Origin: a virus
DNA: 64,000 nt
Reading direction: 5' to 3' (one strand)
IMG/VR virus record: IMGVR_UViG_3300012933_000221
Coordinates: 7,911 to 71,910 of that record
Below are positions 7,771 to 56,851 of this stretch, in pieces. The notes beneath the pieces were generated by a model. It saw nothing but the letters and a program-made list of their open reading frames with translations, did not search any database and had not been told where the DNA came from. A program made the position numbers and the translations under genes. The first letter of the stretch is position 1. Each line of letters begins with the position of its first letter.

Positions 7771-8753
7771 AAGTATTTGAAGTAACTAGTCCAAGAAGCG
7801 GCGGCGATGTTCAATACCAGCCAGTAGTTGATAAGGGTCCTAAGACTCCTGAAGAACTAGCTGCTATTAATGCGCAACGTGCAGCATCGGGCGAACAAGC
7901 TGCTGATGTTGCTGACTATAATGCAAGACAGGCCAGCGGACTATATGCTCAATCGCCTAAGTCAGTTCAACAGACCACTGCACCAGTTACTCCTACTGCA
8001 CCAGTTACTCCAACTCCACTAGCAGCACCGCAAGTAGCAGCGCCTGCTAAACGACAATGGGGCACAGGGGTACTTGGTCTCGGCAGTCAAGGCCCAGAGG
8101 TAGAAGCATTGCAGCGCCGCCTTGGTATTCCTGCAGATGGCAAGTACGGACCACAAACAAAAGAAGCAGTTATTGCACTTCAAAAGAAGATTGGCGTTAC
8201 CCCTGACGGAGCTTACGGACCAAAGACTAAAGCTGCTGATAGTAAGCAGATGCCTGCCTTACCTGGCTCAAAGCCTGCACCAGAAATTGATCTAGCAGTA
8301 CAACCTAAACCTACAGTTAAACCTGCAAGAGATAACGTTGCTCAAGCAAATGCATATATGGATCAGCAAAGTGCAGCAGCTGATCAAAAATGGGCTGATA
8401 ATCGTGCAAGAAGATCAGCAGCACGACAACGATCAGATAACGCAAATGCAACTGTAGATGCAGAATTAGCAGCAATGGATAAAGCGACTGCTGGAATAAA
8501 AGCTGGAACACAGTTACCAACAGCTCCGAAGTTTAGAATAGAAAAATCTACGTATGCACCAATCCAAGGACAGGCTCAGCCACCAAGCTATACTGTCACT
8601 GACATCGAACGTGGTGTGCAAGTGTTTACAGGCAAAAGCGATAAGGAAGCTATGAATTATGTTAACCAGAATGACCCAGCCGGTGCTGCACAAACAGGCA
8701 TAACAGCTAACGAGTCGCTTGATAGAATACTACAAATAGCAGGCCTAAGATGA
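7767..8753 (+). CDS. Peptidoglycan-binding domain protein, C-terminus IAGLR
   Basis: Two PG_binding_1-like repeats: LQRRLGIPADGKYGPQTKEAV and LQKKIGVTPDGAYGPKTK. The C-terminus is ...QIAGLR. Confidence 0.55.
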   Translation: MKVFEVTSPRSGGDVQYQPVVDKGPKTPEELAAINAQRAASGEQAADVADYNARQASGLYAQSPKSVQQTTAPVTPTAPVTPTPLAAPQVAAPAKRQWGTGVLGLGSQGPEVEALQRRLGIPADGKYGPQTKEAVIALQKKIGVTPDGAYGPKTKAADSKQMPALPGSKPAPEIDLAVQPKPTVKPARDNVAQANAYMDQQSAAADQKWADNRARRSAARQRSDNANATVDAELAAMDKATAGIKAGTQLPTAPKFRIEKSTYAPIQGQAQPPSYTVTDIERGVQVFTGKSDKEAMNYVNQNDPAGAAQTGITANESLDRILQIAGLR

Positions 8754-26341: not shown

Positions 26342-28243
26342 ATGAGCAAAATCATCGGTATCGACTTAGGTACAACAAATAGCTGTGTAGCGATTCTAGA
26401 AAACGGAATTGCTAAAGTAATTGAAAACAGCGAAGGTGCTAGAACAACACCCTCAATCATTGCATATACTAAAGACGAAGTTCTTGTAGGTGCAACAGCA
26501 AAACGACAAGCAGTCACAAACCCAAAGAATACAATCTACGCAAGCAAGCGACTTATCGGTCGTAAGTTTGACGAAGCCGCAGTACAGAAAGACATTGACC
26601 TAATGCCTTACTCAATCATCAAAGCTGACAACGGCGATGCATGGATTGAAGCTAATGGCGAAAAACTTGCTCCACCGCAAGTGTCAGCTGAAGTACTACG
26701 CAAAATGAAAAAGACTGCCGAAGACTATTTAGGTCATTCAGTAACACAGGCAGTTATTACAGTACCAGCTTACTTTAATGATAGTCAACGTCAAGCAACT
26801 AAGGATGCAGGTAAGATTGCGGGCTTGGAAGTATTGCGTATTATCAACGAGCCAACAGCGGCTGCTCTTGCCTACGGCGTAGACAAAGCTGACAAGAAGG
26901 ATCGTAAGATTGCAGTGTTCGACTTAGGTGGTGGTACATTCGACGTATCCATTATCGAAATTGCCAACATTGATGGCGACAAGCAAATTGAAGTATTGTC
27001 AACTAACGGCGATACATTCCTAGGCGGTGAAGACTTTGACCAAGCCATCATGGACTACTTGGTTGCAGAGTTTAAGAAAGACAACGGCGTTGACTTGAAG
27101 AGCGATATGCTTGCTCTACAACGTTTGAAAGAAGCTGCTGAAAAGGCCAAGATCGAATTGTCAACAGCCGCAAGCACAAGTGTTAACTTGCCATACGTAA
27201 CAGCAGATGCAAGTGGACCTAAGCACTTGAACGTTACCATTAGCCGTGCTAAGTTTGAAGGTCTAGTAGATGGATTGATCCAGCGTACACTAGCACCATG
27301 TAAGACTGCTATGCAGGATGCTAAGGTTACAGCCGCTGACATTGACGAAGTTATTCTAGTCGGTGGTCAGACACGTATGCCTAAAGTACAAGAAGCAGTT
27401 GAGAAGTTGTTTGGTAAGACTCCACGCAAGGACGTTAACCCAGACGAAGCAGTTGCCGCAGGTGCAGCTATCCAAGGTGCTGTTCTAGGTGGCGATAAGA
27501 CAGACGTTCTATTGCTAGACGTTACTCCATTGTCGCTAGGTATCGAAACAATGGGCGGTGTGTTTACCAAGTTGATTGGTAAGAATACGACTATCCCAAC
27601 TAAGCATTCACAAATATTCTCTACAGCCGATGACAATCAACCAGCAGTTACTATTAAAGTAGCACAAGGTGAACGTGAACTATTCAAGTACAACAAAGCA
27701 CTAGGCGAGTTTAACTTGGAAGGTATTGCTCCTGCAATGCGCGGCACACCACAGATTGAAGTTACCCTTGATATCGACGCCAACGGTATTATGCATGTAA
27801 GTGCTAAGGATAAGAACACTGGCAAAGAAAACAAGATCACAATTAAGTCCGATTCAGGCTTAACTGATGCAGAGATTCAACGTATGGTACGTGAAGCTGA
27901 AGAAAACGCAGAGTCTGATAAAAAGGCAAAAGAGTTAATCGAAGCACGTAATACAGCTGAAGCTCAAAGTCACACACTTAATAAAGACTTTGAAACATAC
28001 AAAGATCAATTGAGTGAAGAAGAAAAGACCACTTACGAAACAGCTAAAACTGCTTTGAACGAAGCAGTCAAAGGCGAAGACGTAACAGCAATCAACGACT
28101 CTATTACCAAGCTATTCGAATCGGCTAGCCCAGTAATGGCAAAGAAACAAGCAGCTGACCAAGCTAAGGAACAGAGCGCTCAATCTGGCGAGCAAACTGT
28201 AGATGCGAGTTTCACAGAAGTTGACAAAACAGACACACAGTAA
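26342..28243 (+). CDS. dnaK: Chaperone DnaK (Hsp70)
   Basis: N-terminus [22 protein letters not shown] and a full substrate-binding domain. Product is 633 aa. Confidence 0.95.
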
Positions 28244-28728: not shown

Positions 28729-28742
28729 GTGTAAATAAACCC

Positions 28743-28760
28743 GGGGGAGGAAACTCCCCC
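28743..28760 (+). promoter_or_regulatory. GGGGGAG-GAAA-CTCCCCC hairpin (GNRA tetraloop)
   Basis: Perfect 7-bp stem with a GAAA loop, between ibpA and clpS. No T-run follows. Confidence 0.3.
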
Positions 28761-28764
28761 ACTC

Positions 28765-29079
28765 ATGGAGAATATAATGCCAGGTACCGATATCCAAATC
28801 GACGAAAAGATCAAATCTACAGTTTCCGAGCCAAAGCGCTGGAAAGTAGTATTCCTAAATGATGATGCTACACCAATGGAATTTGTAATTGAATTGCTAA
28901 CTCAAGTATTCAAACACACAGCTGATTCTGCAAAGGATATCACTATGCAAGTTCACGAAACAGGTTCGGGCATTGCTGGCGTGTACAGTTTTGAAATCGC
29001 AGAAGCTAAGGCTGTTGAAGCAACTAGTCTTGCTCGTGCAAACGGATTTCCGTTACAAATTAAAATGGAAGAAGAATGA
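28765..29079 (+). CDS. clpS: ClpS ClpAP adaptor
   Basis: KVVFLNDDATPMEFVIELLTQVF matches the ClpS core. Confidence 0.8.
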   Translation: MENIMPGTDIQIDEKIKSTVSEPKRWKVVFLNDDATPMEFVIELLTQVFKHTADSAKDITMQVHETGSGIAGVYSFEIAEAKAVEATSLARANGFPLQIKMEEE

Positions 29080-37196: not shown

Positions 37197-37925
37197 ATGC
37201 GTAGAATACTATCTGCTTTGGCACTTTTTGCCATTCTTTATAATTGCCAAGCAGCCGCTGCCAAAACTCTGCCCATAACTGCAACTACCTGGCTAGTTGC
37301 TGACGAACACGGCAAAATTTTACAAAGTGAGAACATAGAGCAAGTGCGGCCAATTGCCAGCATTAGTAAACTAATGACTGCTATGGTTGTACTCGATGCT
37401 AAACAAGATCTCAACGAGCAGATTGGCCCATATACTAGACACGAGTTAATACAACTAGCATTGGTTAAAAGCGATAATAAAGCAGCTCAAGACTTATGTA
37501 CTTACTATGAAGGCGGCAAAGAAAAGTGTGTCACCGCAATGAATTTAAAAGCCAAGCTATTAGGTTTGCCTAATACTAAATTTATCGAGCCCACCGGACT
37601 AAGTGTATTCAATGTTAGCACTGCAAGAGAATTAATTGTGCTAGTTCAAGAAGCACAAAAGTATGAACAAATTACCAATGCCAGTAAGAGTTCACAAGTA
37701 AAGATTAAACTGAAAAAGAAGTGGTTAATCTTTAATAACACAAATCCAATTATTGGTAAGACTCATAGTGTCATTGTCAGTAAGACAGGATTTATCAATG
37801 CCTCGGGCGGCTGCATTGTTATGATGTTAGATACAGAAGTTGGCAGACGAATAGTAGTTGTACTTGGCAGCAAGAATACTCGCACACGTATTCCCGAAGC
37901 AGAGTTTATTGCCTCGAAGAATTAA
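37197..37925 (+). CDS. pbpG: D-alanyl-D-alanine endopeptidase/carboxypeptidase (PBP7/PbpG-like)
   Basis: Signal peptide, SxxK (ASISKLMTAMVVLDA), SDN and KTG motifs. Long collinear similarity to enterobacterial PbpG. Confidence 0.75.
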   Translation: MRRILSALALFAILYNCQAAAAKTLPITATTWLVADEHGKILQSENIEQVRPIASISKLMTAMVVLDAKQDLNEQIGPYTRHELIQLALVKSDNKAAQDLCTYYEGGKEKCVTAMNLKAKLLGLPNTKFIEPTGLSVFNVSTARELIVLVQEAQKYEQITNASKSSQVKIKLKKKWLIFNNTNPIIGKTHSVIVSKTGFINASGGCIVMMLDTEVGRRIVVVLGSKNTRTRIPEAEFIASKN

Positions 37926-38627
37926 TTACCTGATCTTAGCAAGACCTAACATCCTAAAGACTGTTAGATAAAACCATCCAGCATCAAACTCCCACCACTT
38001 GTGACTTAGCTTAGGATTGGCTGGTTCTGCATGATGATTGTTGTGCAACTCTTCTCCGCCAATAATGATGCCCCAGGGTACAATATTTGTACTTTTATCT
38101 TTAGTCGTAGTGTTGCGATAGCCAAACCAATGACCAACTCCGTTTACTACGCCAGCGGCCCAAAAGGGAATCCACAACATTTGGACACCCCACACTAACA
38201 GTCCAATTGGGCCAAGTAACACAAGATTTATAACCAACATTAAGAGAATCCCAATGCGACTATGTGGGGTGTATAGTTTACGCTCGATCCAGTCATCAGG
38301 AGTACCAACTCCGTAGACTTGAATCATGCCAGTATCTTTACTAGCAGTATGATATAGCCCGGCACCTTTGAACAGTACTCGGAAAATGCCGTAGACATGC
38401 GGGCTGTGTGGATCGCCAGGTAAGTCAGTATTTTGGTGATGCTTGCGATGAATTGCAACCCATTGCTTAGTAACCATGCCTGTTGTTAGCCATAGCCAGC
38501 AGCGCATAAAATGACTAAGAATAGGGTGGAATTGAATGCCTCTATGGGCTTGTCCTCTATGAAGAAATAGAGTAACGCAGACGATAGTAATGTGTGTTAC
38601 TACCAGGGTGTATATTAGTGTGTTCAT
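37926..38627 (-). CDS. Membrane fatty-acid desaturase (delta-9 acyl-lipid/CoA desaturase family)
   Basis: His boxes HRGQAH, HRKHH and the GGEELHNNHHAEP motif. Multiple TM helices. Confidence 0.7.
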   Translation of the reverse strand: MNTLIYTLVVTHITIVCVTLFLHRGQAHRGIQFHPILSHFMRCWLWLTTGMVTKQWVAIHRKHHQNTDLPGDPHSPHVYGIFRVLFKGAGLYHTASKDTGMIQVYGVGTPDDWIERKLYTPHSRIGILLMLVINLVLLGPIGLLVWGVQMLWIPFWAAGVVNGVGHWFGYRNTTTKDKSTNIVPWGIIIGGEELHNNHHAEPANPKLSHKWWEFDAGWFYLTVFRMLGLAKIR

Positions 38628-39109: not shown

Positions 39110-39724
39110 ATGCACGTAATTCCATTATTTGCAAATCCGTTAGGATGGGATATGCTTGATTTGGATAATGATGCTCTAGCAGAGTATTGTTATCAACAAG
39201 AGCATACTTCACTCGATCCAAGGACTGCACTTGGTTGGCAAAGTAACTTAGTTGATACGTCAGCTGAACAGTTAGCTCCACTAGTTGAAGAAATAAAAAT
39301 CAAGTTGCAAGATGCAACTCATTTGTTTCCGGTCCTAGAAGAACATGCTCCTCAGATCACAACCAGTTGGATTAATGTTAATAAGCCAAACGGAATTTCT
39401 TTGCAGAATAATGTTGCACATTTGCATCCTGGAAGATTTTGGACATTTGTATACTATGTCAAAGCTGCTCCAGGTTGCGGAGATTTAACTTTAACTTCAC
39501 CTCTTAAAAACATGTTAAGTTATGCTATTCCAAATCAGGTTTATAGCAGATTAACTCCGTTTAATGCGCTCCAATGGACAGTAACTCCAGAGCCTGGCAA
39601 ACTAATTATGTTTCCAGGCTGGATTGAACACCAAGCGCAAGAGAACCGAAGTGATAGTGACAGAATAAGTATTGCTATAAACGCAGACTTACAAAATTTA
39701 AGTAAGATCCAGTATCCGACTTAA
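39110..39724 (+). CDS. 2OG-Fe(II) oxygenase superfamily protein (marine-phage-type)
   Basis: C-terminus LIMFPGWIEHQAQENRSDSDRISIAIN matches the FPSWLxHxV...RISxSFN pattern. Confidence 0.5.
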   Translation: MHVIPLFANPLGWDMLDLDNDALAEYCYQQEHTSLDPRTALGWQSNLVDTSAEQLAPLVEEIKIKLQDATHLFPVLEEHAPQITTSWINVNKPNGISLQNNVAHLHPGRFWTFVYYVKAAPGCGDLTLTSPLKNMLSYAIPNQVYSRLTPFNALQWTVTPEPGKLIMFPGWIEHQAQENRSDSDRISIAINADLQNLSKIQYPT

Positions 39725-39734
39725 ATACAAGATA

Positions 39735-40105
39735 GTTGTAATTCCTTTGGATAGAAGGCATTTTGGACGCGGGTTCGACTCCCGCCAGGTCCACCATTAA
39801 ACATACTCTTCCCTACCCTGGCTGGAACGGCTGTGCGGGGATAGGAGAACAGACCCGTTTGAGTATGTTTAATAATGGGCCTGCCATGGTTTCGACAGGG
39901 TGAGATATTGAAGACGGCAACTGAGTAGGCGATGACTCTAAATCAAGCAAATTAAAGTAAATGCTAACACATCTACATTCAAGCGTATCGAAGTTAACGT
40001 CGCCTTAAACGACGCTGAGTTCGCTCTAGCAGCCTAAGAAACTGCACTTGCGAGGTAGGACTTACCTTGTCATCCAAACAACCAGAACCCGCTTAGGCGG
40101 GTTTC
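39735..40105 (+). ncRNA. ssrA: tmRNA (ssrA), circularly permuted two-piece type
   Basis: Acceptor piece: T-arm GCGGG-TTCGACT-CCCGC, 3' strand CAGGTCC, ACCA (39769..39796). Coding piece starts GGGCCTGCCATGGTTTCGACAGGG at 39877, giving a 7-bp acceptor stem with G3:U. The tag ORF ANTSTFKRIEVNVALNDAEFALAA ends with TAA at 40035..40037. A terminal hairpin lies at 40087..40102. Confidence 0.7.
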
Positions 40106-40165
40106 TTTATGGTTGACACATTCTTCAAAATCGCTTATACTGTAGTTACACAGAAGGAGAAGTAT

Positions 40166-40975: not shown

Positions 40976-41995
40976 ATGTCAAAAGAATATGGTACCCTTG
41001 TCCTTATTGGACGTTTTCAACCCTTACACAATGCTCACTTAGAGATTATCAAACGTGCAACCGCACTGACAGATAACTTAGTGATTATTACAGGTTCGGC
41101 TGCTCAACCCCGCACTTACAAAAACCCGTTCACTAGTGCCGAACGGGCGCAAATGATTAAAGCCGCAACAGGCGGTCTTGCAATGCAAATTCACATTGAA
41201 GAAAATGTGGACACTATCTACAATGACCAAGCATGGGCAGTTCGTGTTCAAGGCATTGTAAGCAAATATCGAATCCTTGGCACAAAGACTGCTGTCATTG
41301 GTCACAAGAAGGATGAAAGCTCATTCTACTTAGACATGTTCCCTCAATGGGGCTATGTTGATATTGAAGAAATCGAGCCATTGAGTGCCGTTAACATTCG
41401 CGACCTGTACTTCCGTCGTGATGCTAACATGAACTTCATTAAGGCAGTTGTGCCGCAAAGTACATTTGTCTACTTAGATGCTTTTAAAGATACTGCTGAG
41501 TACGAACAAATTATCCGCGAACGTGAGTTCGTTGAAACTTACAAGAAGCAATATGCCTCATTGCCTTACCCACCGATCTTCAGTACTGCTGACGCAGTTG
41601 TAATCCAAAGCGGACACATCTTGCTGATCAAACGCCGCGCTGAGCCCGGTAAAGGCTTGTGGGCACTGCCCGGCGGTTACGTCAACGCTAACACTGACAA
41701 GTCAGTTGAAGATGCTGCCATTCGTGAGTTGCGTGAAGAAACTATGATTAAGGTTCCTGCTCCTGTGTTGCGTGGTAGCATTGTGCGCAGTAAGGTGTTT
41801 GACGCAGTTGATCGTAGTCCACGTGGACGTATTATTACACACGCCTTTTACATTCAACTGCCCGACGGCGAGTTGCCTAAAGTAAAAGGTAGCGACGATG
41901 CAGAGAAAGCCCGTTGGGTTCCTATTGCAGAGGTCAAGAGCGAAGAGTGCTTTGAAGACCACTACGAAATTATTCAACACTTCTTAGGTGCGTAA
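40976..41995 (+). CDS. nadM: Bifunctional NMN adenylyltransferase / Nudix hydrolase (NadM-Nudix, NatV-like)
   Basis: N-terminal GRFQPLHNAH nucleotidyltransferase motif. C-terminal Nudix box GLWALPGGYV...AIRELREETMI. Confidence 0.75.
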   Translation: MSKEYGTLVLIGRFQPLHNAHLEIIKRATALTDNLVIITGSAAQPRTYKNPFTSAERAQMIKAATGGLAMQIHIEENVDTIYNDQAWAVRVQGIVSKYRILGTKTAVIGHKKDESSFYLDMFPQWGYVDIEEIEPLSAVNIRDLYFRRDANMNFIKAVVPQSTFVYLDAFKDTAEYEQIIREREFVETYKKQYASLPYPPIFSTADAVVIQSGHILLIKRRAEPGKGLWALPGGYVNANTDKSVEDAAIRELREETMIKVPAPVLRGSIVRSKVFDAVDRSPRGRIITHAFYIQLPDGELPKVKGSDDAEKARWVPIAEVKSEECFEDHYEIIQHFLGA

Positions 41996-42614: not shown

Positions 42615-43076
42615 ATGAAGACAGTAAAAGGTGATTTGTTAGCAATGGCTAAAGCAGGAGACTTTGACATTATTGTTCAAGGTTGTAATTGTCACAACGT
42701 GATGGGCAGTGGTATTGCTCGTCAAATTCGAGATCAGTTTCCCGATGCATGGCTTGCTGATCAAGAAACATTGTCAGGTGATCGTAACAAGTTGGGCCGT
42801 TATACTATTGGTATGGGCGGACGCTTGGTTGTAATTAATGCCTATACACAGTATAATACTGCTAAGTTCCCAGGGCAGGATGTTTTTGAATACAACAGTT
42901 TTGAAAACATTTTGGAAAATCTAGTTGCCCGTTTTGGTAAATATCGAATCGGTTTGCCAATGATTGGAATGGGTTTGGCAGGAGGAGATCCTGCTCGAAT
43001 TATGCCCATGTTGGAAAAGTTCGCAGAGCAAATGGCTGAAAATGGCGGCTCTGCTACATTGGTTGAATTTGGTTAA
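42615..43076 (+). CDS. Macro-domain-like (ADP-ribose binding/processing) protein
   Basis: GDLLAMAKAGDFDIIVQGCNCHNVMGSGIA ... IGLPMIGMGLAGGDP fits macro-domain topology. Confidence 0.5.
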   Translation: MKTVKGDLLAMAKAGDFDIIVQGCNCHNVMGSGIARQIRDQFPDAWLADQETLSGDRNKLGRYTIGMGGRLVVINAYTQYNTAKFPGQDVFEYNSFENILENLVARFGKYRIGLPMIGMGLAGGDPARIMPMLEKFAEQMAENGGSATLVEFG

Positions 43077-43373: not shown

Positions 43374-44777
43374 ATGAAACTCGCTCAAAACATTATCTTA
43401 AACACTGACTCTTACAAAGTGTCGATGTTCAAACAATACCCAGCAGGTACTACAGGTGTATACTCGTATATCGAGAGTCGCGGGGGCCGTTACGATCGAA
43501 CAGTTATGTTCGGACTCCAGGCTTTTATCAAAGAATACTTACTCGAACCAATCACTCAATCAGACATTGATATTGCTGACGAAATCCTTACCGCACACGG
43601 TGAGCCTTTCCCTCGAGCCATGTGGCAACACATTCTTGACAAGCACAATGGATACCTCCCAGTTGTTATCCGAGCAGTTGCTGAAGGTACGGTTGTACCA
43701 GTTTCAAACGTTCTCGCAACTATTGAAAACACAGACCCAGAATGCTTCGCGTTAACTACATGGTTAGAAACAGCCTTGCTTCGTGCAGTTTGGTATGGTA
43801 CTACTGTAGCCACACAAAGCTGGACTATTAAACAAGTCATTAAAGACTATTTGGAGAAATCAGGTGACGTTACTGGGCTCGATTTTAAGTTGCACGATTT
43901 CGGTGCTCGTGGTGTTTCTAGCATGGAATCAGCGGGTATCGGAGGTGCGGCACACTTGGTTAACTTCATGGGTAGTGATACTATTACTGGTGTTCTGTAT
44001 GCTCGCGAATACTATGGTGCTGGGGTTGCAGGTTTTTCTATCCCTGCCGCTGAACACTCAACAATCACTAGTTGGGGCCGTGATGGTGAAGTAAAAGCCT
44101 ATAGCAACATGGTTGCACAGTTCGGCAAGCCCGGCGCTATTGTTGCAGTTGTGTCTGATAGCTACGACATCTACGAAGCATGTAAAATGTGGAGTACCGG
44201 TGACTTGAAACAACAAGTTATCGATTCGGGTGCTACTGTTGTTATCCGTCCTGACTCTGGCGATCCTGTTGATGTGTTGCCTAAGATGATTGCTATCCTT
44301 GGACAAGGCTTTGGTTTTACTAAGAACAGCAAAGGCTACAAAGTACTCAACAATGTGCGTTTGATCTGGGGTGATGGTATTAACATCCAAAGCATCCAAG
44401 CTATTATGCGTATTGTAGTAGACTTGAATGGCTGGAGTGCTGATAACCTTGCGTTTGGTATGGGCGGTGCATTGCTCCAACAAGTGGACCGCGATACTCA
44501 AAAGTTCGCTATGAAATGTTCGAGTGCGGAAATTAACGGTAAATGGGTCGATGTAATGAAAGATCCAGTTACTGACACTGGCAAGCGAAGCAAGGCAGGT
44601 CGTGTTCAACTTTGGACTAACAGTGGTGGTGAGTTTGCTTCTAGCGTAACTGCTCCTACTGGTTGGACTGATAAAGGCATTGGTGGTTGGGTTCCTGCAC
44701 TGCAAGAAGTCTACCGCGATGGTAAACTTGTCAAAGAAATGTCCTTTGATGAAGTTCGAGCAAACGCTCGCAAATAA
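43374..44777 (+). CDS. nadV: Nicotinamide phosphoribosyltransferase (NadV/NAMPT)
   Basis: Full-length NAPRTase-family type II fold. Product is 467 aa. Confidence 0.85.
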   Translation: MKLAQNIILNTDSYKVSMFKQYPAGTTGVYSYIESRGGRYDRTVMFGLQAFIKEYLLEPITQSDIDIADEILTAHGEPFPRAMWQHILDKHNGYLPVVIRAVAEGTVVPVSNVLATIENTDPECFALTTWLETALLRAVWYGTTVATQSWTIKQVIKDYLEKSGDVTGLDFKLHDFGARGVSSMESAGIGGAAHLVNFMGSDTITGVLYAREYYGAGVAGFSIPAAEHSTITSWGRDGEVKAYSNMVAQFGKPGAIVAVVSDSYDIYEACKMWSTGDLKQQVIDSGATVVIRPDSGDPVDVLPKMIAILGQGFGFTKNSKGYKVLNNVRLIWGDGINIQSIQAIMRIVVDLNGWSADNLAFGMGGALLQQVDRDTQKFAMKCSSAEINGKWVDVMKDPVTDTGKRSKAGRVQLWTNSGGEFASSVTAPTGWTDKGIGGWVPALQEVYRDGKLVKEMSFDEVRANARK

Positions 44778-46491: not shown

Positions 46492-48660
46492 ATGGCTATC
46501 ATTGCAAGCGCACCACAAGACCAAGCAGTTTTGAGCAACGTTGGTGAAATTGGCGAGTTCCGTATCCGCAACTCTGCTAAAGCATTCAGTATTTTGAGCT
46601 CGGGCTTGTATGCAAACAAGATCCGTGCTATCGTTCGCGAATTGTCCTGCAACGCAGTTGACTCGCACATCGCCGCAAGAAAACAAGAAACACCCTTTGA
46701 TGTCCATTTGCCTAACCAATTGGAACCTTGGTTTTCTATTCGCGACTACGGCACAGGATTGACACATGAACAAGTTACCCAAATCTACACCACTTACTTC
46801 GAGTCCACAAAAACCAACTCCAATGAGTTTATCGGAGCTCTCGGCCTCGGCTCAAAGAGTCCTTTCAGTTACACGGATAACTTTACCGTCACCGCCATCC
46901 GTGACGGTGTTAAAGGCATTTACTCCGCCTTCATCAACGGAGATGGAGTACCGAGTATTGCGCAAATGATGACTGAAGAAACTGACGAGCCTGCTGGCGT
47001 TGAAGTAAAGTTCAGCGTTAACGATCGTTATGACTTCGACAAGTTCCGTCAGGAAGCTCGATTTGTTTACAAGTATTTCAAGTTGCAACCTGTTGTGACT
47101 GGCTATGCTGATTTTAAAATCGAAACAGTTGAATACGAAAGCAAGGACATCGTTCCAGGCGTTCACCAAGCTAAGAGCGGACATCGTAGTGTTGCCATTA
47201 TGGGCAATATTGCTTATCCTATTGACATTCCGCAAGCTGACCAAACGTTGGGCGAACTGACTCGATTGCTCCAATGCAGTTTGGAAATCCACTTTGGTAT
47301 CGGTGAATTGGACTTCCAAGCGTCACGTGAAGGCTTGAGCTACATTCCACAAACTGTGAACGCTATTAAAGCCAAGCTGGAATCATTGAACGCAGTATTG
47401 GCTGGCAAGTTGGCTGAAGAAGCAGATGTGATCCCTAACTTGTGGGATCGTGCTATCTTCTTGCAAAAGCGTAAGGACAACTACTTGTGGGGTGCCGCAG
47501 TTAAGAAATATGTTGCCGACACTAATCTGGTAACATACGATGACGGCCGTTATGGTGGTACTAAGACTTTTAAGATGGGTGTTGAAGACCTGGCTAAAAA
47601 GTATAATATCACAGTTCGTGGTTTCAATTACAACAAGCACAGCAAAGCCTACAACAACAAGAAGAGTGAAATCGACTACGGTAACGTGCGTAATGCTAGT
47701 GGCAGCTACGACATGTTCCACTACTGGGGCTTCACTGTTAGCGACTATGTCAACTTTGTTGTAAACGACACTAAGATCGGTGCTGTTGAACGTGCTAAGT
47801 ATCACTACCGCGAAACTAAGCCAGATCAAAACAATATCTCTGTCTACGTGTTGGACCCTGCTGACAAGACTAAGCCAATGAAAACTGCGGCTTTCTTCAA
47901 AGCAATCCATAATCCAGGTGATAACAAGCGTTTTGTGGCGAGTGCGTTTTTGAAGAAAGAACGTGAAGCAGGCAACTTGAAGAACGTGACTATCCTGTCA
48001 TTGCAAGAACGCGGCTTCGGCGGCTACTATCGTCAGAAAGAGATGGTTTGGCGTGATGCAGGTAAAGCTGACTCGTTTGATAAGACCCATACTTTCTACT
48101 ACTTGCCTTTGAGCGGATTCAATCCGATCAGCAAAGTAGTTGGCGGCTTCAACGTTAAGAACTTGTTCACTGATTTGAAAGAGTGCGGTGTTGCTGGTTT
48201 GCGTAATCAAACTATCTACGGTGTGCGTAAAGGTGACATTGAGTTTATTAAAACTCAAAAGAACTGGGTAAACATCGAAGACCACATTGCTAAGGAGTTG
48301 TCGACGATTGACAATAAATTAGTTATGAGTTTGGTGTTGCAGGCTGTTGACAAATTTAACTTGATGTCGTATAATTACAGTATTGTCAGCGATGTAACGT
48401 ATGCTAACAGTCCTTATTTGGCGTTAGTAACACAGTTCAAAGACTTTAGCAAAGTTGAGTACAGTGAACAGAGCTTGAAAAACTTGTGCCGTATGTATGC
48501 TACTAACGTAACATTCAATCCACAAGCTACAGTAGATCAGTTTGTTGAACAATGCAAGGCAGTCGGAGAGCGTTATCCGTTGTTGGCTTACTTGCGCAGT
48601 GCTCCAAGCGCAGAAGTGGCAAATTATATTAACATGGTTGATACACAGAAAGGTATTTAA
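46492..48660 (+). CDS. rIIA: rIIA-like protein (GHKL ATPase N-terminal domain)
   Basis: Product of 722 aa. KAFSILSSGLYANKIRAIVRELSCNAVDSH (N box), IRDYGTGL (G1) and FIGALGLGSKSPFSYTDNFTVTA match the T4 rIIA N-terminal region as recalled. Confidence 0.65.
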   Translation: MAIIASAPQDQAVLSNVGEIGEFRIRNSAKAFSILSSGLYANKIRAIVRELSCNAVDSHIAARKQETPFDVHLPNQLEPWFSIRDYGTGLTHEQVTQIYTTYFESTKTNSNEFIGALGLGSKSPFSYTDNFTVTAIRDGVKGIYSAFINGDGVPSIAQMMTEETDEPAGVEVKFSVNDRYDFDKFRQEARFVYKYFKLQPVVTGYADFKIETVEYESKDIVPGVHQAKSGHRSVAIMGNIAYPIDIPQADQTLGELTRLLQCSLEIHFGIGELDFQASREGLSYIPQTVNAIKAKLESLNAVLAGKLAEEADVIPNLWDRAIFLQKRKDNYLWGAAVKKYVADTNLVTYDDGRYGGTKTFKMGVEDLAKKYNITVRGFNYNKHSKAYNNKKSEIDYGNVRNASGSYDMFHYWGFTVSDYVNFVVNDTKIGAVERAKYHYRETKPDQNNISVYVLDPADKTKPMKTAAFFKAIHNPGDNKRFVASAFLKKEREAGNLKNVTILSLQERGFGGYYRQKEMVWRDAGKADSFDKTHTFYYLPLSGFNPISKVVGGFNVKNLFTDLKECGVAGLRNQTIYGVRKGDIEFIKTQKNWVNIEDHIAKELSTIDNKLVMSLVLQAVDKFNLMSYNYSIVSDVTYANSPYLALVTQFKDFSKVEYSEQSLKNLCRMYATNVTFNPQATVDQFVEQCKAVGERYPLLAYLRSAPSAEVANYINMVDTQKGI

Positions 48661-56534: not shown

Positions 56535-56851
56535 TGGGTACGCAAACTGACTACTTCAACAAGATCGGTTATAAGCACAAGTATGATATCGGTGACAGAG
56601 TCATCGGTACATACAAAAAGATCCCCGTAGTAGGTACAGTTGGAAACGATCGTTTGATTAATCATACTGATGGCCCAGAAATAACACTACACTTAGATCT
56701 GCCAATAAAGGTTGACAATGTGTATACATCGTTTATAATAGTTAAACATAAAGATATAAGGCGCTTGAAGTCTTTGGAAGACACTGAGCCTCTAAAACTC
56801 AAGGAAGCGGGTTCGATTCCCGCCAAGCGCACCAAACAAGGAAAGAAGTAA
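56534..56851 (+). CDS. Hypothetical protein (3' end overlaps a tRNA-like gene)
   Basis: Product of 105 aa. Confidence 0.4.
   Translation: MGTQTDYFNKIGYKHKYDIGDRVIGTYKKIPVVGTVGNDRLINHTDGPEITLHLDLPIKVDNVYTSFIIVKHKDIRRLKSLEDTEPLKLKEAGSIPAKRTKQGKK
56761..56834 (+). tRNA. Putative suppressor tRNA, anticodon CUA (reads UAG)
   Basis: Acceptor GCGCTTG/CAAGCGC + A + CCA. D-arm GTCT/AGAC (short loop). Anticodon stem TGAGC/ACTCA with loop CTCTAAA (U33, CUA, A37). T-arm GCGGG-TTCGATT-CCCGC. Confidence 0.45.

Follow-up and report, generated by a model that had tools for sequence, protein, structure and literature searches.

The 64,000-nucleotide (nt) stretch of viral DNA considered here (positions 7,911 to 71,910 of IMG/VR record IMGVR_UViG_3300012933_000221; hereafter the window, numbered from its first letter) contains a circularly permuted gene for transfer-messenger RNA (tmRNA, the product of ssrA), ranging from ~39734 to 40105 on the + strand. 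The gene shows the permuted order, with the CCA end at 39796, then an 80-nt spacer and then the GGGCCUG start at 39877, and it is a phage two-piece tmRNA, a kind already known from other phages. Judged from its sequence, it is very probably a functional permuted ssrA of the beta type, which belongs to a lytic T4-like phage and rescues ribosomes in dependence on host SmpB.

The resemblance to tmRNA greatly exceeds what chance would give. ARAGORN reports a permuted tmRNA (tmRNA*) at 39704-40128, and two Rfam covariance models match above their gathering scores: RF04321 (tmRNA_permuted) with 127.4 bits (gathering 47, E 1.5e-24) over model positions 1-213 of 213, and RF01850 (beta_tmRNA) with 111.4 bits (gathering 84, E 4.5e-33) along the whole of the model. 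The beta_tmRNA match is the one retained in its clan, the alpha and cyano models being out-competed, and five relatives, including that of phage XacN1, are also typed as beta_tmRNA. An initial annotation, made from the letters alone, had proposed a phage-borne circularly permuted tmRNA and had named a permuted-tmRNA search and a covariance-model search as its checks; both searches agree with it, and about 100 viral homologues support it. The decoy type with a tRNA-like domain only, as in phage DS6A, is not what is matched here: the gene has its whole mRNA-like domain and a tag of 24 codons.

The acceptor piece (39734..39796, 63 nt, + strand like all the features of the gene; Rfam alignments and ARAGORN) contains the 5' strand of helix P2, the T-arm, the 3' strand of the acceptor stem, the discriminator A and an encoded CCA. 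The T-arm (39769..39785; sequence and Rfam) is formed by GCGGG at 39769-73, the loop TTCGACT at 39774-80 and CCCGC at 39781-85, and is followed at 39786..39796 (sequence) by the acceptor strand CAGGTCC (39786-92), the discriminator A73 (39793) and CCA (39794-96). The coding piece (39877..40105, ~229 nt; ARAGORN, Rfam and fold) opens with GGGCCTGCCATGGTTTCGACAGGG at 39877 and comprises the acceptor 5' strand, the SmpB-site region, the P2 3' strand, the hairpin of pseudoknot 1 (PK1), the tag open reading frame (ORF), two 3' hairpins and the terminator. Its acceptor strand GGGCCTG (39877..39883; sequence), whose G+1 is the expected RNase P cleavage site, pairs with CAGGUCC as G-C, G-C, G-U (G3:U70), C-G, C-G, U-A and G-C, then A and CCA, which confirms the 7-bp stem with a G3:U alanine identity element described initially; the T-arm, CAGGTCC, ACCA and 5' start at 39877 listed with it are all in place. 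The P2 3' strand (CAGGGTG ... GGCAACT, 39896..39922; Rfam beta_tmRNA alignment and covariation) belongs to a helix of 20 pairs in the Rfam alignment, and the PK1 hairpin GAGT / AGGCGATG / ACTC, taken from the same alignment, is located directly downstream at 39923..39938. The tag frame (39963..40037; sequence and conserved resume context) shows the resume codon GCT, 24 codons and the stop TAA at 40035-37, which lies in the loop of a hairpin at 40029-40045 in the predicted fold. The 3' hairpin of the coding piece (40050..40070) equals the terminal hairpin of the beta_tmRNA model and is also present in the predicted fold. Downstream of it, an intrinsic terminator is read from the sequence at about 40085..40108, with an 8-bp stem containing five GC pairs, then a T run; the GC-rich hairpin and T run at 40085-40104 bear out the terminal hairpin with which the initial annotation had closed the gene. 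The 5' end of the acceptor piece (GUUG...UUUGGAU, 39734-39755) could also pair with the 3' tail of the coding piece at 40071-40083 (AUCCAAACAAC), an arrangement which the minimum free energy (MFE) fold favours over part of the comparative P2 helix.

At least 119 IMG/VR viral contigs (contigs compared here carry L numbers) contain the exact 32-nt 3' half of the tRNA-like domain, and ARAGORN calls a permuted tmRNA in ~100 among the 119 matches listed; both halves of these genes align to the window in permuted order. The T-arm is invariant among them by construction, being inside the 32-mer used for searching, but the acceptor 5' strand GGGCCUG, though outside the search pattern, is also invariant in 74 of 74 viral homologues. 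Seven P2 pairs next to the tRNA-like domain are paired in all 74, including two variable pairs that remain 100% paired (TA 33, CG 29, AT 7 and GC 4 in one; AT 37, GC 29, CG 6 and GT 2 in the other). The outer P2 helix alternates between TA (41) and CG (30), while the central part of P2 varies from subtype to subtype and gave a poor alignment, and the first PK1 hairpin covaries as GAGU/ACUC, CAGU/ACUG and CGGU/ACCG.

The surroundings of the gene are conserved as well. The T4-like context named in the initial annotation is supported by rIIA (46492-48660) and by NrdA and NrdB, all in the window. The flanks of the relatives, many of whose contigs range from 200 to 380 kb, encode homologues of window proteins with amino-acid identities of 54-71% for rIIA, 78-85% for DnaK, 57-66% for ClpS and 77-84% for NMNAT, NadV and the ATPase, and the gene order in L114 (tmRNA, NMNAT, NadV, ATPase) is that of the window; from these homologous flanks and the shared order, the relatives form one broad clade of uncultivated phages. 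The position of the tmRNA upstream of NMNAT-NadV-ATPase-rIIA is conserved in related phage contigs and, because the neighbours there are 77-84% identical, argues for stable inheritance of the gene in the phage lineage. A megablast of 20 kb against INPHARED found no close cultured phage relative, and the matches of a blastn search with the tmRNA region were confined to short stretches of the tRNA-like domain, most of them remnants of prophage attachment. A 32-mer specific to the window, taken from its tag, has no match in IMG/VR.

The tag reads ANTSTFKRIEVNVALNDAEFALAA, 24 residues from GCT 39963 through 40034, and is followed by UAA. In nearly all the viral relatives GTAAAT precedes the resume codon (...AAAGTAAAT directly before GCN), and this conserved context fixes the resume codon of the window at 39963. 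The 24-residue ...ALAA frame read at the outset therefore stands, and the tag called by ARAGORN, DAEFALAA, was rejected as a truncation; ARAGORN also miscalls the tag of L001. Tags of 22-33 residues are present in 46 of 100 viral genes, whereas tags of 10 residues are the most frequent in the tmRNA database (PMC11915505). These long tags show a conserved N-terminal block joined to a complete canonical tag (...ANDxxFALAA). The block follows the overall motif AN/K-x-x-TF-E/D/K-Y/F..., which is A-N/K-A/T-S/N-T-F-E/K-Y/F-...-V in the group of the window and ANADTFDFSAMSFTGNTV in a sister group. Across 35 distinct sequences the frame remains uninterrupted for 22-33 codons and closes with (A/V)(L/I)AA and a stop codon. 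Variation in the sister group affects 13 of 18 third codon positions, compared with six first and five second positions, and at four codons in a row (F, T, G, N) it is purely synonymous.

A TAAATA box at 39722..39727 (+ strand) may act as a T4-late-type promoter element or as a weak -10 element. It lies 7 nt 5' of the first paired base and overlaps the stop codon of a 2OG-Fe(II) oxygenase ORF (39110-39724), which ends 10 nt before the RNA; the start region of the window, CTTAAATACAAGA followed directly by TAGTTG, is thus of the TAAATA type. No sigma-70 promoter match was found directly upstream of the tmRNA, and a strong sigma-70 promoter at 40113-40141 (11/12 matches) serves the next gene downstream. 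The relatives show three upstream arrangements, a TTGACA-17-TATAAT promoter, a TAAATA box or an abutting cold-shock-protein ORF, each positioned for an RNA start at the first P2 base, with the promoters ending ~6-7 nt before that start. In L010, L009, L053, L003, L020, L023 and others 5-6 nt separate the end of the cold-shock-domain gene (Pfam CSD, 106 bits) from the tmRNA, and because of this spacing the tmRNA may be co-transcribed with an RNA chaperone gene in these relatives.

The case for a functional two-piece tmRNA in the window is built on anatomy, conservation, covariation and expression signals, and several points weigh against it. Searches with phmmer and tblastn, using E. coli sequences as queries and a bacterial locus as positive control, found neither SmpB nor SspB in the window and the viral flanks covered, so that function would depend on a compatible host SmpB. 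By inspection of the window sequence, the second stem of PK1 was not found, and MFE folding fails to reproduce the whole comparative P2 helix. The pooled pN/pS of ~0.39 for the long tags comes from non-independent pairs preselected at an amino-acid identity of at least 50%, and the codon-position signal is flat in the tag subgroup of the window itself (7/6/7 variable sites), where peptide-level constraint therefore rests on the conserved motif and the open frame.

From the sequence we infer processing, charging, dependence on host SmpB and a benefit to the phage, along the following course. One precursor would range from ~39734 to the terminator at ~40105, started at the TAAATA box or reached by read-through from the upstream gene. 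Host RNase P would cut 5' of G39877 and 3' processing would trim to the encoded CCA at 39796, with an additional cut possible in the long closing stem of the spacer; removal of the 80-nt spacer would leave a 63-nt acceptor piece and a coding piece of ~200-230 nt, held together by the 7-bp acceptor stem and helix P2. Host alanyl-tRNA synthetase would charge the acceptor end via G3:U70 and A73 and, with host SmpB and EF-Tu, the complex would enter those ribosomes of the infected cell which have stalled on broken mRNAs. Translation would resume at GCU 39963 and append ANTSTFKRIEVNVALNDAEFALAA, whose canonical ...NDAEFALAA end would send the product to proteases of the ClpXP/ClpAP type, and the ribosome would be recycled. 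The phage would thereby sustain translation capacity during host transcription shutdown and mRNA cleavage.

A further benefit may be coping with read-through caused by an amber-suppressor tRNA of the phage itself. The window also carries tRNA genes (ARAGORN), and a solo amber-suppressor tRNA (anticodon CUA) with its own TTGACA-17-TATAAT promoter is located at 56712-56834, the tRNA itself at 56761-56834. In E. coli suppressor strains UAG read-through raises non-stop stalling, and hence the demand for tmRNA; by read-through of host UAG stops, the phage tRNA may possibly do the same. The long ORFs of the window on the + strand use TAA 50 times, TGA 16 times and TAG once. Eight relatives have only one or two tRNAs in their tmRNA flanks, and all of those tRNAs are amber suppressors (L120 319-477; L004, L046, L060, L074, L090, L109 and L116).

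The window also encodes DnaK (26342-28243; Hsp70, 854 bits) and ClpS (28735-29076; PF02617, 98 bits), as had been noted initially; the two genes adjoin each other and are located within 10 kb of the tmRNA in several relatives (L043, L022, L009, L051 and L053), forming a recurring proteostasis neighbourhood. That the phage manipulates trans-translation and proteolytic tagging, as the initial annotation suggested, may reasonably be inferred. It is unlikely that the RNA is a modified tmRNA which subverts host trans-translation rather than supplementing it, competing with host tmRNA for SmpB and stalled ribosomes while its 13-residue extension (ANTSTFKRIEVNV...) changes the fate of tagged proteins, for example through recognition by a phage factor, altered handling by an adaptor (SspB or ClpS), or slower or faster degradation. 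Such subversion would fit the conserved block added to a canonical tag in 46 of 100 viral homologues, the coding signature in the sister group and the phage ClpS and DnaK genes with their proximity to the tmRNA in relatives, and it has a precedent in DS6A, whose tmRNA-like RNA, with a tRNA-like domain only, inhibits host tmRNA (PMC4131195). However, the ...FALAA degron end and the resume context are fully kept, so normal tagging and degradation is the simplest reading; the closely related phage L114 shows a short tag, ANDEQFALAA, at the same locus, so the extension is dispensable for the basic role of the gene; and the extension has no known binding partner.

The gene could also be a passenger, a host-derived copy of ssrA or an attachment-site remnant gained by recombination and unused by the phage. 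Since ssrA is a site of integration, pieces of it are often found in temperate phages, and many of the blastn matches are 41-nt prophage-end matches. The gene of the window, in contrast, is full length with its own terminator, is conserved with covariation across ~100 viral contigs and keeps its position in a lytic T4-like gene neighbourhood, and no integrase is found among the annotated ORFs of the window, for which no systematic integrase search was made. One genome each of 185,579 bacterial and archaeal species contains the exact 32-mer in only 11 contigs: in ten of them ARAGORN calls a standard one-piece tmRNA (Bacteroidota, Saprospiraceae and similar metagenome-assembled genomes), in the eleventh it makes no call, and none of the 11 is permuted, an exact-match test on species representatives which misses bacterial genes differing by one base. 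Taken with these data, a passenger gene is highly improbable, and a functional gene of the phage is the preferred explanation.

The same comparison bears on the host. The initial annotation had taken the permuted tmRNA as a host-range clue, which is weak and overstated: no permuted bacterial tmRNA of the species representatives contains the exact 3' half, and assigning a host from the tmRNA was rejected. Xanthomonas, the genus infected by XacN1, has one-piece tmRNA. The type of tmRNA is a poor indicator of host because XacN1 carries a gene of the same clade and the same beta type, and because Methylophilales phage Melnitz is a documented phage whose tmRNA type mismatches its host (PMC9004378). 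The finding is thus a warning against predicting phage hosts from the type of their tmRNA.

Between the two pieces, the intervening sequence (39797..39876, + strand, 80 nt) forms in the MFE fold a long irregular hairpin whose closing stem reaches CCA..UGG, and it is presumably removed on maturation. The closing inverted repeat reported initially, TTAAACATACTC / GAGTATGTTTAA, is present; the hairpin has an MFE of -27.9 kcal/mol (z -3.66) and stacks on the acceptor stem in the predicted fold of the precursor. An Rfam scan of 39780-39890 with E up to 10 gave no family for the spacer; besides the tmRNA model, the permissive scan returned only noise (mir-7445, 17.8 bits; gathering 79). An HDV-like ribozyme was rejected, its topology not fitting because the outermost spacer helix joins the extreme 5' and 3' ends. 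A protein-coding role was also rejected for the spacer of the window, which, unlike those of some relatives, has no Shine-Dalgarno site or start codon.

The 72-nt core of this spacer (39799..39870, + strand) is a recurrent structured RNA module in the frame AAACAYACT...AGTRTGTTT, with copies of 88-98% identity in 16 further contigs, 14 of which plainly belong to phage tRNA arrays. In five IMG/VR contigs the core is located between tRNA genes, always 1-4 nt after an encoded CCA. Three further IMG/VR contigs contain it, two of which, together with L071, show a diverged copy in the spacer of another tmRNA (the tmRNA spacers holding copies are those of L071, L137 and L139), and six of the seven metagenome contigs with the core have it in or adjoining tRNA genes. 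Copies are found at L132 898-969, L133 10312-10384, L134 522-593, L135 8345-8416, L136 4072-4143, L138 about 225-296 and L071 6310-6350, and in L140-L146. The closing stem shows compensatory changes (CATACTC/GAGTATG, CACACTC/GAGTGTG and AAGTAC/GTACTT). In the same phage tRNA arrays GGTAACAAGGTTCGAAACTTGTCCTTCCGGTGGCGGAAA is a further conserved non-tRNA sequence after the spacer module; such sequences are found at L132 970-1010 and in L138, L140 and L145. A 91-nt tRNA-like gene with a 2-nt 'anticodon' call (tRNA-??? (ta)) is present at L132 1214-1304, L138 502-592, L140 439-529 and L145 4456-4546.

A pattern scan shows that a constant frame, CCA-(TATA/TATTG)-AAAYAYAYT...ARTRTRTTT-(CTATA/CAATA)-TGG, surrounds many unrelated cargos of 52-202 nt, in tmRNA spacers as well as in phage tRNA arrays. 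Five such sites are located within 1.6 kb in L144 (151-1642), and others at L136 2296-2353 and 9492-9555, L050 8834-8899, L061 13923-14026, L118 1760-1842 and L142 411-500, besides many tmRNA spacers; some of the cargos contain T-arm-like hairpins. On these comparisons the constant hairpin frame looks like a processing-stalk cassette system with an exchangeable cargo as its interior. Among the relatives, ~25 of 77 distinct spacers show a Shine-Dalgarno site, an ATG and a small ORF (for example those of L009, L106, L027, L040/L116, L066 and L011/L016/L018/L075), and in ~16 of these ~25 a TGA stop ends exactly 1 nt before the tmRNA +1. The micro-ORFs mostly encode hydrophobic peptides of 22-26 residues, such as MDNEYSALVGFIVVIVVFALVLL and MNDNLGSLAIGVVVVLVVFALVLL, the longest having about 83 residues, and none shows a Pfam family above threshold. 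One CxxC...HKC peptide is read into the tmRNA with no stop ahead of the RNase P site, so that its mRNA would become non-stop on cleavage. Other relatives have spacers of 53-62 nt with no obvious cargo. Least credible of all is that the gene is a processing platform whose tRNA-like ends recruit RNase P and 3' enzymes to free the spacer cargo, its tmRNA role being secondary: the core copies after tRNA CCA ends or in tmRNA spacers, the constant frame around many different cargos and the small ORFs would suit it, but the tmRNA parts are more conserved than any spacer, the tag is under constraint, spacers with no obvious cargo exist, and both roles are compatible with each other.

Permuted ssrA of betaproteobacteria was reportedly described by Sharkady and Williams in 2004 as a 'third lineage'. 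The betaproteobacterial two-piece tmRNA (RF01850, which the window matches at full length with 111 bits) shows the same order of acceptor piece, spacer and coding piece, the same layout of P2, PK1 hairpin and terminal hairpin and the same ...FALAA tag end as the gene of the window. The two differ in the acceptor stem (model consensus GGGggUG/CAccUCC, window GGGCCUG/CAGGUCC), in the 24 residues of the window tag compared with the database mode of 10, in the phage-borne location and in the exact 3' half, which is found in no permuted bacterial gene of the species-representative set.

The gene of the Xanthomonas jumbo phage XacN1 (AP018399, ~37.2 kb, unannotated in the record) belongs to the same viral clade, with 123 and 108 bits, an acceptor piece 80% identical to that of the window, and a tag, ANANTFDYALAA, which has the same initial ANxxTF(D/E/K)(Y/F) motif. 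The XacN1 rIIA is the best cultured-phage match to that of the window, at 30% identity, and amber-suppressor tRNAs are also located nearby. However, the XacN1 tag has only 12 residues and no second ND..FALAA block, the spacer is another one and the genomes are distantly related.

Phage two-piece tmRNAs had been catalogued before. A 2022 survey found 53 such structures among 18,146 phage genomes, mostly aquatic, and lists XacN1 as 'Permuted' in its Table S1 (PMC9004378); tmRNAs are also known from mycobacteriophages and phage G (PMC4131195) and from huge phages (PMC7162821), and the 2025 tmRNA database contains 79 phage sequences (PMC11915505). The marine phages with two-piece tmRNAs (Melnitz, pelagimyophages and cyanophages) offer, like the window, the case of a complete permuted ssrA in a lytic T4-like myophage, and a role in maintaining hijacked translation or recycling proteins was proposed for it (PMC9004378). 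The Melnitz gene, however, is of the alpha type with a glutamine riboswitch at its 3' end, whereas that of the window is of the beta type with an extended tag, and an Rfam scan found no riboswitch in its tmRNA region. The tmRNAs of the Bxz1 group of mycobacteriophages are also phage-borne trans-translation RNAs, but one-piece and non-permuted, and the DS6A RNA is an inhibitor with a tRNA-like domain only and no tag frame, in contrast with the full tag frame of the window (PMC4131195). In the literature we found neither work on the function of a two-piece tmRNA from a phage nor an account of extended tags or coding spacers. Three features of interest emerge from sequence comparison: a clade specific to viruses, tags with an extension and a spacer that resembles a cassette.

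It is possible, though less likely than not, that these features mark a virus-restricted lineage of two-piece tmRNA which has diverged from the cellular forms, with an extension of the tag conserved at the peptide level and a spacer that serves as a cassette slot shared with phage tRNA arrays. If so, tagged proteins would carry a second signal, readable by a phage or host factor, for example with the phage ClpS and DnaK, and the slot would deliver varied cargo freed by tRNA-processing enzymes: in the window a 72-nt RNA, and in relatives a micro-ORF of 22-84 residues whose stop codon abuts the RNase P site.

Other genes surround the tmRNA. Just 3' of it is a cluster for NAD salvage and ADP-ribose, containing an NMNAT-Nudix fusion (40976-41995), a macro-domain protein (42615-43076) and NadV (43374-44777), which is kept at 77-84% identity in L114, L100 and L099. 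On the - strand, a D-Ala-D-Ala carboxypeptidase (Peptidase_S11, 37197-37925) and a fatty-acid desaturase (37926-38627) have homologues of 58-73% in related viral contigs.

The tmRNA gene itself makes a sound and useful annotation, not a discovery. The extended tags provide a testable handle, the fate of proteins with long and with short tags, and the spacer cassettes suggest a phage route, not described before, by which tRNA-like processing sites would yield small RNAs and micro-proteins. Uncultivated T4-like and jumbo phages of a large clade maintain a ribosome-rescue RNA of their own at a constant place in the genome. Its gene neighbourhood also contains DnaK, ClpS, a cold-shock protein and a solo amber-suppressor tRNA, which suggests that ribosome rescue and proteostasis are either limiting or contested during infection.

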